From NCBI GenBank assembly GCA_021498095.1, contig JAIZWK010000001.1, positions 3,990,001 through 4,022,000 of the forward strand: a stretch of 32,000 nucleotides of DNA, given 5' to 3'. Shown here in pieces: positions 5,463-25,509 of the stretch. The notes beneath the pieces are model-generated. The model searched no databases and was not told the origin of the DNA. It was given only the letters and a program-made list of their open reading frames with translations. This DNA is from Candidatus Harpocratesius repetitus (GTDB lineage: Archaea > Asgardarchaeota > Lokiarchaeia > Sigyniarchaeales > Promethearchaeaceae). Within the stretch, counting starts at the first letter, position 1, and each line of letters starts with the position of its first letter. The translations under genes were made by a program, and so were the position numbers.

Positions 5463-7067
5463 TTATTTTTCAAGAGATAATACCGCATTAACTGCCTTTT
5501 TCCATCGTTTTATTTTTTCCGTACGGATGTGTGGCTCCATTTTGGGTGAAAATTCTCGATATTCTTGCTGTAATCCCTGAAGCTCTTTAAAATCCTTCCA
5601 AAATCCAACCGCAAGTCCTGCAAAATATGCTGCCCCTGTTCCTGTCATATCACTTTCTGGAGCTCTCATAACTTTAACATTAGTAAAATCAGCTAAACAC
5701 TGCAGTTGAATATCAGATTTAGAAACACCGCCATCCACCTTGATTTCAGTCAATTGGATTTTCGTATCATGCTGCATGCCTTCAAGAATATCATAAGCTC
5801 TTAGTGCTAATCCTTCTAATACTGCACGGCATACATGTCGTCGATGAGTGGATAAAGATAATCCAAAAATAGTTGCACGGGATTTGGGACTGAAATATGG
5901 AAAACTGATACCTGATGGTGTGGGGATGAAAATTACACCTTCCGTATCATCTGTTTGGGCAGCAAATTCATTCAGCATTTGAGCAGTATCTGAAACCCCA
6001 ATTCCTTCTCCCAACCAATCAATTAATGTTCCTGCAGTAGTAACTTGACCTTCGAGCATATAAGTAATTTGGCCATTGATTCTCCAAGCAATTAGGGGAA
6101 ACAAACCGCGTTTCGAGAGTTTTGGTTTAGGTCCGACAGTCATATCAACAAAAGCACCCGACCCTTGCGAAATTTTAGTATCACCAGGATGAAAACAGCA
6201 ATGACCGAAAAGAGCAGCCATTTGATCACCAACGCTTGCCCCAATTGGTATGCTGTGTCCAAAGAAAACTTCAGGATCAGTGGAACCAAAATCATCTGCT
6301 GTATCTAACACCTTAGGAAACATTGCTGGGGGATGTGGAATATCAAAAATCTTGAAATAAGTTTTATTCCATTCCAAATCAAATGGATTATACATAGATG
6401 TGCCGCTGGCATTCGTTACATCTGTATAGTGGTGCTTTCCATTGGTTAATTTGTATATAAACCATGTATCCAGTGTACAAAAATGAATTTCATTATTTTT
6501 ACAGCGCTCATATAATTCATGACCTGAATGTTGTCTATCTCGGTATTTTACTTCACGTTGTTCAAACAGCCATTTCAGACGAGGAATTCCTAATACTGGA
6601 CTCATATGAACCATTTTAGTGGTTAAAAGCATAGGAGAACCCGTGATTCGTCCAGCGATTCCTGCAAATCCGCGTAAAAGTCGATAAGAAAATTGAGTGT
6701 CACATCGTTTAGCCATATCAGCAGCTCTTACATCTGCCCAACTGATAAAATTAGTGATTGGTTCCCCTGTCTCTTTTTCAACTAAACAAAAAGATCCTCT
6801 TTGATTAGTTATTCCAAGTGCAGCTACTTCCTCAAGTGAATACTCTGAAGATTCAAAAACAGTATTAACAACTTTCAACAATGCTTCCCACAAAATCTGT
6901 GGATCATGTTCAATTGCACCTTCTTCAGGAAATGAAGGAGGAGTTGTTTGATATGCCCGATTTACAATTTTCCCATTATGGTCAAACAATAAAGCTCGAA
7001 TTCCAGTGCTTCCACTATCTATAGCTAAAATATTTTTTTTTTTTTCATTGATCGAAATAGATTCCAT
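5463..7067 (-). CDS. FGGY-family glycerol kinase, GK5-like
   Basis: Motifs DSGSTGIRA, GITNQRGS, SWADVRA, DTW.IYKLT.G, TD.TNAS.T, GDQ.AALFG.CCF, RAVLEGLA, VDGGVS and GAA.FAGLAVGFW. Confidence 0.9.
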   Translation of the reverse strand: MESISINEKKKNILAIDSGSTGIRALLFDHNGKIVNRAYQTTPPSFPEEGAIEHDPQILWEALLKVVNTVFESSEYSLEEVAALGITNQRGSFCLVEKETGEPITNFISWADVRAADMAKRCDTQFSYRLLRGFAGIAGRITGSPMLLTTKMVHMSPVLGIPRLKWLFEQREVKYRDRQHSGHELYERCKNNEIHFCTLDTWFIYKLTNGKHHYTDVTNASGTSMYNPFDLEWNKTYFKIFDIPHPPAMFPKVLDTADDFGSTDPEVFFGHSIPIGASVGDQMAALFGHCCFHPGDTKISQGSGAFVDMTVGPKPKLSKRGLFPLIAWRINGQITYMLEGQVTTAGTLIDWLGEGIGVSDTAQMLNEFAAQTDDTEGVIFIPTPSGISFPYFSPKSRATIFGLSLSTHRRHVCRAVLEGLALRAYDILEGMQHDTKIQLTEIKVDGGVSKSDIQLQCLADFTNVKVMRAPESDMTGTGAAYFAGLAVGFWKDFKELQGLQQEYREFSPKMEPHIRTEKIKRWKKAVNAVLSLEK

Positions 7068-7180: not shown

Positions 7181-8161
7181 TTATCCACCTACATATTGAC
7201 CCAACTTTCTTCCATGAACTCCATAAAAAAGGAATGTCACTACCGAAAGAGCGCTCATTGTCGCCATATAATCAAAATTTAACAAGATTCCTTTAATATA
7301 ATTCACTAATGAAATACGTGTTATGAATGGTGTTTGAGTGTAAAAATCATTCCTAAAGATAATTGAAACAAAAAGTAATAATATACCAGATAGTAAATAT
7401 ACAATCGCAGTACGAGAGAATACTCTATTCTTTGCTGAAGCTCTTTTTTGCTGAGAAAAATATCTAAAAAGATTATATAAAATTAAAAAAGATACAAGAA
7501 TAACACCATCTATATCAAAAAATGATACATAGATGAGTCCTAAGATAAATAAAAATAAGTTAAATAAAGAAGCAACAAGTTGGGTAGGATATAAAGGCAC
7601 ATTCAACAATTCAGGATTAATTCGAATTACTTTTGATTTCATATTTGAATATTTAACGCTAAATGAACCATTTGTTGGTTTTCCATAACAACAACCGTAA
7701 TTATAGCAACCAATTCTTCCTATAAAGAGAGAAAGAGTAGCACCAAATGTTACAGCATCTAAAAATATAATAATATTTATATGCTCCATCCAACAAACAA
7801 TGATTGCCCCAATTCCTATGCCCATCAAACCCCCTTGATTATACATGGTAGTTTGATTTAAATTATAAAGAAAATTTTCAAAATATTTTAGCCCATCTAT
7901 AAAAACTTGAAAAAATTTTGTGAAAAATAACATTGAAAAAAGCATGATTCCCAACGGAACAATTGTTGGATGATTGAAATAAATTCCTTTACTATTTAAA
8001 TAGAATAATAATAATGAGTTAGAAAAAAAGATACTTACAACCATAATCAAACCGAAATTCACTATTTGGAAATTCTTTCCCTTATACAATATTGGATTCT
8101 TATTCAATGAGAGAAAGGGCTTTATCAGATATGAAAAGATCTTCTCCACCTTCTTATTCAT
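7181..8161 (-). CDS. Prolipoprotein diacylglyceryl transferase (Lgt)-like polytopic membrane protein
   Basis: GRIGCYNYGCCYGKPT and LYPTQL match the Lgt signature region. Y-x3-R-x6-R is present in the C-terminal helix, and there are multiple TM segments. Confidence 0.8.
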   Translation of the reverse strand: MNKKVEKIFSYLIKPFLSLNKNPILYKGKNFQIVNFGLIMVVSIFFSNSLLLFYLNSKGIYFNHPTIVPLGIMLFSMLFFTKFFQVFIDGLKYFENFLYNLNQTTMYNQGGLMGIGIGAIIVCWMEHINIIIFLDAVTFGATLSLFIGRIGCYNYGCCYGKPTNGSFSVKYSNMKSKVIRINPELLNVPLYPTQLVASLFNLFLFILGLIYVSFFDIDGVILVSFLILYNLFRYFSQQKRASAKNRVFSRTAIVYLLSGILLLFVSIIFRNDFYTQTPFITRISLVNYIKGILLNFDYMATMSALSVVTFLFYGVHGRKLGQYVGG

Positions 8162-8318: not shown

Positions 8319-9068
8319 ATGTTAGGAGCTGTATATGCATCTATTGAATATTTCACAGAAATACCAAAATTGATTGAGATATCAATGTTTTGGATATTAG
8401 GAATAAAAATTTACAAAGCAAAGAAAACAAAGTTGAATTTAGTATATGCCATTAGTTTTTTTGTTTGGAGTTTCTATACAATGGCCGATTTAATTATGTG
8501 GATAACAGCTGCAAATAGTGAAACTTGGTTTTTCATAGATAATAGAATTCGAGACTTACAGGTAACTTTAATTGCCGTTTTTGCATTTTTAATTTATTTT
8601 TCAACCCAAATAGTAGTTAAAGGTTATTCTGGCTTAAATTGGAAGCAAATTTATATCATTGGAACAATCTTTTTAGCTATTGCAATTACTGCAGCAATAA
8701 CAGATAAATTAATAATTAAAGACGAAGCTGGAAATGTTTTGTCACCCTCAGAATGGGATTCCGCACCATTGGTTGTAGTCTCTGCTAATATTTCTTCAAT
8801 TACAATGATTTTAATGGCAATTCCATTATTATTGTATGCTCAATCAATATGGATATTATTTAAAATGATATCTCAGAATGTAGATGATAAAAACCTAAAA
8901 ATAAGGATGTTTAATTTAATCATCGGAATCTCTTTAATTCCAACAGGTGTAGTATATTTTGCAGTAATTTTGGCAATTCCAGGATTTTATTCATTTGTTG
9001 CCGTAATTTTCGGAAGGATTTTTTGGATTTTAGCACCTGTATTTATTTGGAGAAGTCAAAAAAAATAA
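8319..9068 (+). CDS. Stand-alone ~7TM membrane protein (HisKA_7TM-like sensor module?)
   Basis: About seven hydrophobic helices with a loop between TM4 and TM5. The protein ends right after TM7 with no signalling domain. Confidence 0.7.
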   Translation: MLGAVYASIEYFTEIPKLIEISMFWILGIKIYKAKKTKLNLVYAISFFVWSFYTMADLIMWITAANSETWFFIDNRIRDLQVTLIAVFAFLIYFSTQIVVKGYSGLNWKQIYIIGTIFLAIAITAAITDKLIIKDEAGNVLSPSEWDSAPLVVVSANISSITMILMAIPLLLYAQSIWILFKMISQNVDDKNLKIRMFNLIIGISLIPTGVVYFAVILAIPGFYSFVAVIFGRIFWILAPVFIWRSQKK

Positions 9069-16019: not shown

Positions 16020-16598
16020 CTATTTTTGGGATTTTTCCAAATTGAACAAGTATTTTAAACATTTTATCCGAAAATTAAACATTGGCACCTTTTTCATGTA
16101 ATTTAAATAATCATCTCCAAATTTAGCAATTGCTTCTGGTTCTTCCACGATCTTTATTAACATTAAGATAAAAAGCATCTCTAAAGGTGCAATTATAATT
16201 ATAAAAGTGGGAGATCCAATTAATAAAGCGAATGAAAATGGAAAGAAAAGCAATCCTAAATGCATAGGATGACGCATACAACCATAAATGCCATCTGTCA
16301 CCAATTTATTTGTTTCCATCCGTGGAATATCTCCTTCACGCCCAAAACGAGCCAAGAATCTCCCTGTTACTTTGCTGATACGAAAAACAGCCCACATTAA
16401 AAAAACACCTGGAATAAAAGAAAGTATATGGAATAGAATACTTTTCCACAAAAAAGGAAATAGAGATTGATCTATGATTATTCCTAAAATCGCGCCACCA
16501 AACATCATTAAAACCCAAACGGCAATTCTAATTATCATTCCACCCTTAATCTTTTTCACATCAGCGTTATTATGATTTTCTTGTTTCATTTTTATCAT
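16020..16598 (-). CDS. ICMT/PEMT-family membrane methyltransferase
   Basis: LVTDGIYGCMRHPMHLG motif, downstream EE...KFG..Y..Y...VP motif, and several TM helices. Confidence 0.88.
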   Translation of the reverse strand: MIKMKQENHNNADVKKIKGGMIIRIAVWVLMMFGGAILGIIIDQSLFPFLWKSILFHILSFIPGVFLMWAVFRISKVTGRFLARFGREGDIPRMETNKLVTDGIYGCMRHPMHLGLLFFPFSFALLIGSPTFIIIIAPLEMLFILMLIKIVEEPEAIAKFGDDYLNYMKKVPMFNFRIKCLKYLFNLEKSQK

Positions 16599-23226: not shown

Positions 23227-25509
23227 TTAAAGAGAAAATTGGGCTTCGCTGGCTTTGTAATCTTCACCAGTTCCAGTAATTTTATATCGAATTTCTACGG
23301 TATCACCAGCAGCAATTTCTTCAATTACCCAAACCAACATATCTTTCTTTTCTAAACTTTTCACTTCAGCGGGTTCTTCACTATAATCTCCATATTCAAA
23401 ATTATCCGGAACAACATCACGCAATTCGATATTAGTTAAAACATTTTCACCGGTATTAGTTAAGCGTAATACAATTTCGTATTCACCTTCACTGGCCAAA
23501 GCAGAGATACGCTTGCCTTTGCGAATCTTTTTCCGTTCGTGAACTACTGGAATTGTAATAGCTTCAGGAATAATTTCAATTTGAGCTCCTGCAGGATATG
23601 TATTACCTAAATACCTCACATTAGAAACGAATTCGGTATCACGTGGAGGTTTATCAGCGATAATTGTATATTTCGCTTTTATTATCATTCCAGGTAAGAA
23701 CATTCCAAAAGCGCTATCCCGTAATTCGGTTAAGGAGATTTTTACCAAGTGTTCTGAATCAGAAGTTTCTGTAGCAGGTTCTATTTCTATAAAGGATGGA
23801 TCAACAGTGATTTGTTCACCTAAATCTTCCCAATCAATTTCTTCTTCTTCATCTAATCCCTCGTGATTGTAATCTTCAGGAGGTCTAACAATAAAAAGTT
23901 CAATTTCTTCTGGTTTTGGAGGAATATACCCACTTTGGATGCGGTCTTCAATTAATAATTCATTTAAATCGGCACCACCGGTATTCTTTACTTGATGAAG
24001 AACTTCAAATGTATTTTGCTGGAATGACGCAATAGAACTTATCGAATAACTTAATTTTCCATCCATCATTGCAACAGCTAATTCAAGATCATCAATAGTT
24101 ATAGAACCCATGGTAGATATTTTATGATCGCTAACGAGGAAAAATTCAACCGTTTTATAGAACTTTGGTTCTTCTCCATTTTCAGTTTCTGTTTCCCATT
24201 CTACAGATTCCCATCGCGCACCAGAAGCAATTGGAGGAATTTCCCCAGGATCAATATCAAGCACTTTTTCATTATTTGCAACATTTACAATGTCTAAATT
24301 CACTAATTGCATCTGAAAATCAGATTCGTTTTCAAAAATAACTCTACAATCGTATTTATCAGGATTTGAATCTTGTTGAAAAATTTCCATACCAACGAAG
24401 TTATCACTGTATGCATCAAATTTATCAATTTGTATACCAGTTAAGGCTTTTGTGGCAAAATATTCAACAAAGACCTTTCCTGTATTTATTTTTTCTTCAG
24501 CAGAATGAACTTCAATTGACATATTTAATTTCAAACTTACTTCAGAACCAGCTTTAATACTGTCTATTGTCCAAACCACAAAATTATCAATATCTGTTTC
24601 TGCTTGACCATGTGAAGTTTCTACAATGTCAATATTCATATATCCTTCTGGAATCTCTTTTTTAATTTTAATATCGTTTAAATCATAATCAGTAGTATTT
24701 TTAGCCGTTATCTTAAAGAGAATTCTGTTTGCATCACCTGGTGCTAAAGAATAGGTTTCTACAGATTCGTCATTTTGGGTTGAAATAAATTCAGTAATTT
24801 TCAACGCCGGTTCTTCAAATTCTTCGATTTCATATTCAATTTCATATTCTTTTCCTGGTTCCAAACTTTTTATCGAAACAGTTTCATCAATTGAAGCAGA
24901 TTTCTCTTTTTTAAAGGAAACATCAATATCCCAAATCTTATTTATCGAAGACGGATTAATTACTTTGAACAATCCGCTTGTTTTCCGATCTTCTTCAATA
25001 TCTGTTTCACCATTAAATTCAAAATGAGTCTCAACTTTTTCAATGATTTCTAAGGGAACTAACTCTCCTACAGCACCTTTTGGTCCTAAAATAATCTCTC
25101 CTTCTTTATTTCCTGTTGCTTTATCATGAGTATAGATTTTTCCAGTTCCAGAATCTTTTTGATATTCAATTTCTCGTTTTCCGCCTTCAGATTTCATTTT
25201 TTCTGCCTCAGCACGTTCCATTTCTTCACTTGCATCAAAACCCATTCTAGTTCCAGATCCCATTTGTTCAGAACTTGATTGAACTTGCTCAAAGAATTTC
25301 ATTAGCGGATTGTAATCTTTCTTTCCTATTTTTACATCTTTTCCACTTTTCTTAATTGCATCTTCAATCACCTTTTTTGGTAAATTTGAGGATGCAAGAT
25401 TCCCAAACATTGCAAAAAATTGATCTGAAGTAACTGAAAAATCACATTTTAATATTTTTTTATCCAGAACAACTTTTCCTACATTTTTTATATTGTATTT
25501 ATCTGCCAT
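23227..25509 (-). CDS. Large acidic protein with about five tandem Ig-like (DUF11/CARDB-like) domains and no signal peptide
   Basis: Repeated N-T/E-G/S/T-x-x-x-L-x-N/D-x-x-x-x-D/K-x-I/V-P and W-x-I-x-x-I-x-A-G-x-x-V / L-E-P-G motifs. No hydrophobic leader or TM segment. Confidence 0.8.
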   Translation of the reverse strand: MADKYNIKNVGKVVLDKKILKCDFSVTSDQFFAMFGNLASSNLPKKVIEDAIKKSGKDVKIGKKDYNPLMKFFEQVQSSSEQMGSGTRMGFDASEEMERAEAEKMKSEGGKREIEYQKDSGTGKIYTHDKATGNKEGEIILGPKGAVGELVPLEIIEKVETHFEFNGETDIEEDRKTSGLFKVINPSSINKIWDIDVSFKKEKSASIDETVSIKSLEPGKEYEIEYEIEEFEEPALKITEFISTQNDESVETYSLAPGDANRILFKITAKNTTDYDLNDIKIKKEIPEGYMNIDIVETSHGQAETDIDNFVVWTIDSIKAGSEVSLKLNMSIEVHSAEEKINTGKVFVEYFATKALTGIQIDKFDAYSDNFVGMEIFQQDSNPDKYDCRVIFENESDFQMQLVNLDIVNVANNEKVLDIDPGEIPPIASGARWESVEWETETENGEEPKFYKTVEFFLVSDHKISTMGSITIDDLELAVAMMDGKLSYSISSIASFQQNTFEVLHQVKNTGGADLNELLIEDRIQSGYIPPKPEEIELFIVRPPEDYNHEGLDEEEEIDWEDLGEQITVDPSFIEIEPATETSDSEHLVKISLTELRDSAFGMFLPGMIIKAKYTIIADKPPRDTEFVSNVRYLGNTYPAGAQIEIIPEAITIPVVHERKKIRKGKRISALASEGEYEIVLRLTNTGENVLTNIELRDVVPDNFEYGDYSEEPAEVKSLEKKDMLVWVIEEIAAGDTVEIRYKITGTGEDYKASEAQFSL

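Follow-up and report, generated by a model that had tools for sequence, protein, structure and literature searches.

The stretch of DNA analyzed here, referred to below as the window, comprises 32,000 nucleotides from the Lokiarchaeial archaeon Candidatus Harpocratesius repetitus (GenBank assembly GCA_021498095.1, contig JAIZWK010000001.1, positions 3,990,001 to 4,022,000) and carries on its minus strand, at window positions 7181 to 8161, an intact gene for an unusual copy of a bacterial-type membrane protein with the fold of the prolipoprotein diacylglyceryl transferase Lgt (PF01790). We put at roughly 0.55 the probability that this protein is an intact Lgt-fold enzyme of a rare paralog subfamily of bacterial origin, termed here the long GCC subfamily, which was acquired horizontally by a few Lokiarchaeia and is not a housekeeping Lgt. 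The protein probably does a different lipid-transfer job from that of Lgt. Our confidence is high for the identity and evolutionary history of the gene and low to moderate for its chemistry.

The open reading frame (ORF) has an ATG start and encodes 326 residues. The translation matches the Pfam LGT profile (PF01790) over positions 2 to 238 of 240 with an E-value of 1.9e-20 and 73.6 bits, far above the gathering threshold of 24.9, and it is the single PF01790 gene in the complete 4.36-Mb host genome. The GC content of the window (0.30–0.36) matches the composition of the host. The canonical-Lgt equivalog cut-offs are failed by a wide margin (NCBIfam TIGR00544, 56.4 versus 118.9 bits; NF000778, 55.4 versus 334 bits); a profile of the long GCC subfamily (alignment A1) scores 426.5 bits, and all motifs of that subfamily are present, namely [GA]C[YF]NYGCC within a GRxGC...G signature, LNQTTMYNQGG, and SKVLRxNPEL. 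The protein is only ~19% identical to Escherichia coli Lgt (PDB 5AZB/5AZC; PF01790; TIGR00544; EC 2.5.1.145), and a search of the PDB with its single sequence gave no match, so that a profile search was needed for alignment. We therefore mapped residues by profile alignment to 5azb and by structural alignment to 5azc. The seven-helix core and the extracytoplasmic head superpose on E. coli Lgt, and the structural alignment stops at residue 271; the predicted model has pLDDT values of 91 to 98 across residues 251 to 320. Together with the Pfam score, this bears out the Lgt-family assignment made in the first-pass annotation, which had been read from the sequence by eye.

The residue map shows an active site that is partly kept and partly replaced. 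In transmembrane helix 1 (TM1), the V34-N-F36-G-L38 motif (window positions 8048 to 8062, minus strand as for all elements of this gene) places F36 at E. coli Y26, which hydrogen-bonds the sn-2 ester oxygen of phosphatidylglycerol (PG), and M40 stands at Y30. At the start of TM3, the equivalent of the HGGL motif is M106-Y-N-Q109-G-G-L112 (7826 to 7846), with Q109 at H103, and before it comes LNQTT, a subfamily motif in which T104 is invariant. In the signature G148-R149-I-G-C152-Y-N-Y-G-C157-C158-Y-G160 (7682 to 7720), an invariant Cys triad (C152, C157, and C158) takes the place of N146, E151, and L152, Y155 stands at N149, and the equivalents of R143 (R149) and G154 (G160) are kept. The extracytoplasmic head that follows (residues 161–192; 7586 to 7681) harbors the SKV(I/L)RxNPEL and PTQL motifs and an invariant R180, and is shortened: with domain limits taken from PMC4728403, the stretch from C157 to P192 spans ~35 residues versus ~47 (E151 to P197) in E. 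coli. A197 is found at E202. Finally, the TM6 motif Y229-N-L-F-R233-Y-F-S-Q237-Q-K-R240 (7442 to 7477) keeps the equivalents of Y235, R239, and R246 and has Q237 at E243. The essential arginines R143 and R239, as well as R246 and G154, are thus retained as R149, R233, R240, and G160, all of which are invariant across the long GCC subfamily. The first-pass annotation had placed VNFGL at Y26, MYNQGGL at H103, and Gln at E243, with R143, R239, and R246 kept, and the profile alignment bears out this register.

The C-terminal extension (residues 272–326; 7184 to 7348) is absent from canonical Lgt. The predicted model and the alignment place in it a short helix (residues 285–293), an eighth transmembrane helix (residues 296–314), and a conserved tail, F-Y-G-V-H316-G-R-K-L-G321, in which G321 is invariant and G314, H316, and L320 are nearly invariant across the subfamily.

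Several of these positions have been probed in E. coli. Y26F, H103Q, E151A/Q, and E243Q are inactive in complementation (Mao et al., PMC4728403), and Y26, H103, R143, N146, G154, and R239 are required for function according to a more recent study (PMC13251419, mBio 2026), which also reports that H103 is often Tyr, Trp, or Phe across bacterial Lgts and that Cys occurs at N146 and E151. The window protein lacks the residues by which a canonical Lgt can be recognized, that is, Tyr at 26, His (or Tyr, Trp, or Phe) at 103, and Asn146 plus Glu151. Given Y26, H103, the failed equivalog score, and the pathway context described below, a canonical Lgt role is unlikely, in agreement with the first-pass annotation.

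To place these substitutions in context, we compared the long GCC subfamily with 88 canonical-length relatives (256–288 residues) that carry the signature GRxGCxxxGCCxG, here called short GCC Lgts. These are the nearest sequence relatives outside of the long subfamily (E-values of 1e-16 to 1e-5; P0046 and P0078, the latter from Sporosarcina luteola, are examples), and share with it the PTQL motif, the arginines, and the Cys triad, with Cys at 146, 151, and 152 in 88/88 sequences. Most lack His at 103, where Tyr is found in 62 of the 88 and Phe, Ser, Met, Ile, or His in the remainder. They differ in that Y26 (86/86) and Glu or Asp at 243 (86/88) are retained, position 103 favors Tyr rather than Gln, LNQTTMY, SKVLRxNPEL, and the C-terminal extension are all missing, and they form a separate clade (100/100). 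In the long subfamily, position 26 is Phe in 27/30, position 103 is Gln in 28/31, and position 243 is Gln in 22/32 sequences, the last being confined to the archaeal clade and to the bacterial Type B loci described below, with Glu kept in Type A and fused forms. The set of features particular to the long subfamily therefore comprises Y26F, Q103, E243Q, LNQTTMYNQGG, SKVLRxNPEL, the shortened head, and the C-terminal extension with its YGVHGKxLG tail. Eighteen residues, concentrated in the active-site motifs, are invariant in this subfamily across at least 10 bacterial phyla and the archaea, among them R149, C152, Y155, C157, C158, G160, R233, R240, D135, and T104.

One short GCC gene (P0046) lies directly downstream of the gene for signal peptidase II (lsp) on the same strand. 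Adjacency of lsp and lgt is the classic lipoprotein-maturation pairing. Because the Cys triad is universal and loss of His103 common in short GCC Lgts, one of which sits beside lsp, we infer that a large bacterial GCC lineage inherited both features from its ancestor and that they can be reconciled with a genuine Lgt role; Cys at 146 and 151, being universal in these proteins and already in print, does not by itself exclude Lgt activity. The view that the substitutions are unusual, as the first-pass annotation had it, thus holds for Y26F, Q103, and E243Q and fails for the loss of H103 as such and for N146C and E151C. Its own caveat, that the same changes might be common in active bacterial GCC Lgts, proved right in part, the triad being present in all 88 short sequences. 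With Cys-signature variants published (PMC13251419), only Y26F, Q103, E243Q, and the C-terminal extension are, in the sequences compared, specific to the long subfamily.

Other departures from the textbook signature are found in genomes that carry short GCC genes, including Lgt copies of GDDYG and GDGDWG types. On an Acidobacteriota chromosome (G003:C1:2166458-2167208; L035/L041), a gene read in two frames, owing to a frameshift or a sequencing error, has the Lgt signature GRIGCFMAGDDYG, and a 415-residue Bacteroidetes protein (L056, genome G306) has GRIGCHMAGDGDWG. None of the Lgt-family copies with a readable signature in these two genomes has Asn at 146.

Homologs of 320 to 350 residues retrieved at E ≤ 1e-34 form a distinct group with a wide but sparse distribution. 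A scan for the pattern [GA]C[YF]NYGCC in one genome per species (~185,000 species) returned 28 loci, all of them bacterial. Carriers belong to the Acidobacteriota, Thermodesulfobacteriota/“delta” group, Bacteroidota, Lentisphaerota, Spirochaetota, Chlamydiota, Fibrobacterota, Bacillota (the cultured Cohnella and Alkalicoccus), Armatimonadota, and Balneolota, and further include a Legionella metagenome-assembled genome (MAG; Pseudomonadota) and Polyangiaceae. Searched exhaustively with a profile, 1.84 billion cluster representatives yielded ~16,500 Lgt-family matches, 174 of them at E ≤ 1e-30, and roughly 100 to 130 among the matches listed cover the profile through the C-terminal tail. In each of the five bacterial carriers tested, a canonical Lgt (180–263 bits) coexists with the long type (60–102 bits), which identifies the long type as a paralog and not the housekeeping enzyme.

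The nearest relative of the window protein, at 65% identity, is from Candidatus Lokiarchaeum ossiferum and is named “prolipoprotein diacylglyceryl transferase family protein” by NCBI, and three more metagenomic relatives are 51 to 58% identical. Among 161 species genomes of the class, the long subfamily was found in that of the window and in none of the other 160; it was found in no other genome among 301 sampled from the phylum, and is absent from both sampled congeners (92% and 87% complete). Other PF01790 matches in Asgard archaea were rejected as members: L042, in a 6%-contaminated MAG, is a partial short-GCC sequence at one end of a ~2-kb contig, and L043 and L044 are weak matches of a different PF01790 type.

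A maximum-likelihood tree, the phylogenetic check called for by the first-pass annotation, recovers the long subfamily as monophyletic (100/100) and set apart from the classical Lgts as well as the short GCC ones. All five archaeal sequences group together (100/100) and are nested inside the bacterial Type B clade (100/97), where their neighbors are a Smithella/Acidobacteria/“delta” group and a Bacteroidota group, and they keep all 18 subfamily-invariant residues despite having diverged to 50 to 65% identity. This nesting indicates horizontal transfer, apparently a single event from bacteria to Lokiarchaeia, and the sequence conservation indicates that the gene has since been kept under selection. 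Since the bacterial members share the substituted residues, the substitutions predate the transfer, and the earlier suggestion that they are an adaptation to archaeal ether lipids has to be abandoned.

The lipoprotein pathway that an Lgt would serve is not apparent in the host. Signal peptidase II (Lsp, PF01252) was not found in the genome at E ≤ 1. A genome scan for lipobox proteins, which the first-pass annotation had also proposed and which we ran as a regular expression on crude ORF calls, found Cys at the +1 position in 3 of ~3,518 ORFs, below the ~7 expected from the Cys background and thus no excess; the same signal-peptide scan returned Ser in 38, Gly in 29, and Ala in 26. None of the three matches is convincing, one having a Rossmann-like N terminus, one a cytoplasmic-looking N terminus, and one being a likely spurious ORF. 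Few lipoproteins are predicted in Asgard archaea more generally (PMC12462473). A different lipid-transfer job is probable because the host genome holds no lipoprotein pathway for the protein to serve.

Bacterial long GCC genes occur in recurrent contexts that provide insights into what such a job might be. In the 12 Type A loci (L015:6001-8985 from Cohnella; L006, L007, L013, L014, L016-L018, L020, L021, L023, and L025), two genes come after the Lgt-like gene on its strand, the first for a ~375-residue flavoprotein and the second for a ~290-residue protein. The flavoprotein belongs to Pyr_redox_3/Lys_Orn_oxgnase, with an ArsO-like monooxygenase as the best, weak NCBIfam match; the ~290-residue protein matches no Pfam family above threshold, and its ESM Atlas model resembles the pyridoxal phosphate (PLP) fold of ACC deaminase/D-cysteine desulfhydrase (TM score of 0.80). 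An AhpC/TSA redoxin is found nearby in five loci, three of them Type A. In the 10 Type B loci (L009:6950-7672 for the partner; L003, L004, L005, L010-L012, L019, L026, and L029), the Lgt-like gene adjoins one for a multi-pass membrane protein of 230 to 265 residues with ~5 to 9 transmembrane helices (alignment A2) and 28 invariant residues, for example, W21, E27, N67, Q105, Y177-E178, W188, and G206-G207. This partner has no Pfam or NCBIfam match, and the ESM Atlas gives it no confident family (feature score of 0.79, structural TM score of ~0.5).

Natural fusions add a further context. The 730-residue P0183 joins an Lgt-like domain to a C-terminal flavin monooxygenase, which lends independent support to a functional link within the Type A pair. 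Among the matches listed, ~15 representatives of 480 to 520 residues have an extra N-terminal region of ~190 residues, and the five proteins scanned (P0202, P0210, P0220, P0245, and P0218) combine an N-terminal PEMT/ICMT-family methyltransferase with a long Lgt-like domain. One fusion of this kind is 787 residues long. These fusions keep the GCC signature, have Tyr at 103 and Glu at 243, and end in an H-x-[KR]-x-x-G tail. In the literature searched, we came across no account of the long subfamily or of its extra helix, operons, and fusions.

These data allow us to outline a possible chemistry for the window protein. R149 and R233, the pair that in E. coli Lgt grips the phosphodiester/ester region of the donor, are kept, as are R240, G160, and D135, and an anionic glycerophospholipid is thus probably still bound at the outer leaflet, within the central cavity; in the archaeon studied here, the bound donor would be an archaeal ether phospholipid. 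The replaced residues include E151, which contacts the PG head group, Y26, which contacts the sn-2 ester, and H103, part of the proposed lipobox-peptide site, and so the acceptor, and possibly the leaving group, would not be the same as for Lgt. In bacteria, the operons and fusions bring in a flavin monooxygenase, a PLP enzyme, a redoxin, and ICMT/PEMT domains, which suggest a non-lipoprotein acceptor. Elsewhere, partners of this kind have thioethers, derivatives of cysteine, or the head groups of lipids as substrates, and we therefore favor as candidate acceptors a thiol, on a small molecule or a peptide, or else a lipid head group; the product would be a (thio)ether-linked lipid that is then further modified. 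The tail may also contribute: if the seven Lgt helices run N-out/C-in and one more is added, His316 is predicted to be extracytoplasmic and could replace His103. A more specific proposal, which we regard as unlikely though worth stating, is that long GCC proteins form a new Lgt-fold class that joins a glycerolipid of the membrane to a cysteine or thiol, either free or carried on a peptide, to give small thioether lipids. On these, the flavin monooxygenase would act by S-oxygenation, the PLP C–S enzyme by cleaving or building them, and the ICMT domain by carboxyl methylation.

A number of observations weigh against an enzyme of altered chemistry in this archaeon. In E. coli lacking both lgt and lpp, E151A and E243A are functional and H103Q is partly tolerated (PMC13251419), and some of the substitutions may therefore disrupt less than their appearance suggests. 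The low lipobox count derives from a regular expression on crude ORF calls and not from SignalP. No bacterial partner gene (flavin monooxygenase, PLP enzyme, Type B protein, or ICMT/PEMT fusion) adjoins the archaeal gene in the window, the Type B partner was not found anywhere in the host genome at E ≤ 1, and the neighbors that do recur around archaeal copies (a DUF998-like gene, a 249-residue membrane protein, and a GlpK-like kinase) reflect local synteny only. Finally, a thiol or small-molecule acceptor is deduced from guilt by association over three contexts, which may not share one chemistry.

Four other explanations can be weighed against these same data. The tolerance of H103Q, E151A, and E243A in E. 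coli would suit a true prolipoprotein lipid transferase that puts an archaeal lipid on the Cys of a few dedicated secreted proteins, as would the retained fold, both essential arginines, and G154, and the short GCC relatives with their Cys triad, mostly without His103 and in one case in an lsp-lgt operon. We judge this quite unlikely, however, since the window protein has Phe at a position that is Tyr in 86/86 short GCC Lgts and at which Phe inactivates the E. coli enzyme (PMC4728403), a canonical Lgt is encoded separately in each of the bacterial carriers tested, the equivalog score is far under the cut-off, and the host lacks Lsp and offers three weak lipobox matches, none of them secreted-looking. 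The changes at Y26, H103, N146, and E151/E243, four positions at which mutation inactivates the E. coli enzyme (E151/E243 in the assay of Mao et al., PMC4728403), might instead mark a catalytically dead Lgt-fold lipid binder that serves as a scaffold, sensor, or flippase-like helper, and there is a precedent in the Mycobacterium smegmatis paralog with Y26H and N146C, presumed to be of low activity in the papers that cite it. Against this stand the 18 residues, including both essential arginines, that never vary among members from at least 10 bacterial phyla and from archaea, the new conserved His-containing tail, and the fusion or operon linkage to enzymes; the invariant active-site residues and the added tail speak for an active site that was rebuilt rather than one that decayed. 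A dead protein, which the first-pass annotation had offered as an option, is therefore not favored and is unlikely in our estimate.

We consider comparably doubtful an enzyme that acts on lipids only, hydrolyzing a phospholipid head group or moving it to a second lipid, so that neither a thiol nor a peptide serves as acceptor. Such an enzyme would keep the donor-activating arginine pair while its proposed peptide-binding site changed, E. coli Lgt slowly hydrolyzes PG to diacylglycerol in crystals (PMC4728403), the PEMT family to which some members are fused includes phospholipid N-methyltransferases, and divergent Lgts have been suggested to use other substrates (PMC13251419). It would, however, leave the invariant Cys triad unexplained, and the Type A redoxin, disulfide-reductase-like flavoprotein, and D-cysteine-desulfhydrase-like PLP enzyme suit sulfur chemistry better. 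Last, the very patchy distribution (1/161 class genomes) and the lack of conserved partner genes in the archaeal loci are what a functionless, not-yet-decayed remnant of horizontal transfer would leave; an intact reading frame, the host-like base composition (0.30–0.36 GC), and the preservation of every subfamily-invariant residue in five archaeal sequences at 50 to 65% identity make this highly improbable. Among the readings of the first-pass annotation, altered chemistry thus survives, here as a change of acceptor or donor, and is on inferential grounds the best description of the intact long GCC enzyme, shorn of the idea that ether lipids drove the substitutions.

Comparison with known systems helps to place this enzyme. 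Beyond the substitutions, it differs from E. coli Lgt in its shorter head, eighth transmembrane helix, and conserved C-terminal tail, and in a host without Lsp or convincing lipobox substrates. A parallel is found in M. smegmatis MSMEG_5408 (Y26H, N146C), a second Lgt copy beside the major Lgt, as cited in PMC13251419 and PMC12462473; compared by description only, it comes from a different phylum, and neither a C-terminal TM8 nor a Cys triad is reported in those accounts of it. The only archaeal lipoprotein-lipidation enzymes described are Haloferax volcanii AliA and AliB (arCOG02177/02178; PMC12462473), which can likewise be likened by description only: these archaeal membrane proteins have been implicated in thioether lipidation and have two conserved arginines described as Lgt-like, and the similarity of AliA to PF01790 is only marginal (PMC12462473). 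Archaea have been stated to have no Lgt homologs (PMC12462473; PMC13251419), a statement that needs qualifying in view of a clear PF01790 member in Lokiarchaeia, including in a complete genome. The window gene is a rare bacterial import of paralog type and is not the missing Asgard lipoprotein enzyme.

The genes around the archaeal copies were also examined. Divergent from the Lgt-like gene, at 8319 to 9068 on the plus strand, lies a gene for a 249-residue, six-helix membrane protein with no family assignment, a 45%-identical homolog of which is encoded near the Lgt-like gene of L046; in L047 (2166 to 2309), a 48-residue C-terminal remnant sits beside a 715-residue gene product. This protein is not a remote homolog of the Type B partner (hhalign probability of 0.1%, hmmsearch negative). 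A DUF998/Frag1-like gene (a weak assignment) is divergent to the Lgt-like gene in L045 (5047 to 5766) and L046 (5060 to 5842), and the host has a copy at G000:C1:1374017-1374628; the family occurs in 11 of 14 genomes of the archaeal family, often in multiple copies. It was rejected as a specific partner, the host copy being 2.6 Mb away and the gene being present in 10/13 family relatives without an Lgt-like gene. A gene 113 bp downstream of the window's Lgt-like gene, on the same strand (5463 to 7067, minus), encodes a 534-residue FGGY glycerol-kinase-like protein that falls just under the NCBIfam GlpK cut-offs (439 versus 498 and 430 versus 590 bits). It occurs only in the window and in the syntenic L047, where a ferredoxin-like gene lies between it and the Lgt-like gene; neither L045 and L046 nor any of the bacterial loci has it, which disqualifies it as a functional partner. 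A role of the Lgt-like gene in defense was rejected, PADLOC having given no match.

Two more distant genes of the window are worth recording. A 192-residue PEMT/ICMT-family (Ste14-like) membrane methyltransferase is encoded 7.9 kb from the Lgt-like gene (16020 to 16598, minus strand). It falls in a large Ste14-like family of bacteria (55–66% identity): most of the closest homologs come from bacteria (Chloroflexota, Anaerolineae, and others), one is from a Promethearchaeota MAG (64%), and relatives in its own archaeal family are at most 36% identical; for these reasons it looks like a second bacterial import. Its likeness to the methyltransferase domains of the fusions is at the family level only (25–37% identity), and it was dismissed as a co-acquired partner. 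At 23227 to 25509 (minus strand), a 760-residue protein has DUF11 repeats and also matches PF00928, the mu-homology family of adaptor-complex medium subunits and a eukaryote-type domain (47.4 versus a threshold of 31.6 bits).

The wider value of this gene lies in the subfamily to which it belongs, where the active site has been rebuilt within the Lgt fold, a helix has been added, and flavin, PLP, redoxin, and ICMT/PEMT enzymes are recurrent associates. The cultured carriers Cohnella and Alkalicoccus make the reaction of the long subfamily directly testable, and the case is a warning against naming such genes “prolipoprotein diacylglyceryl transferase.” If the proposal of small thioether lipids were true, the imported Lokiarchaeial enzyme would use archaeal ether lipids and give rise to a previously unseen archaeal thioether lipid or lipopeptide.

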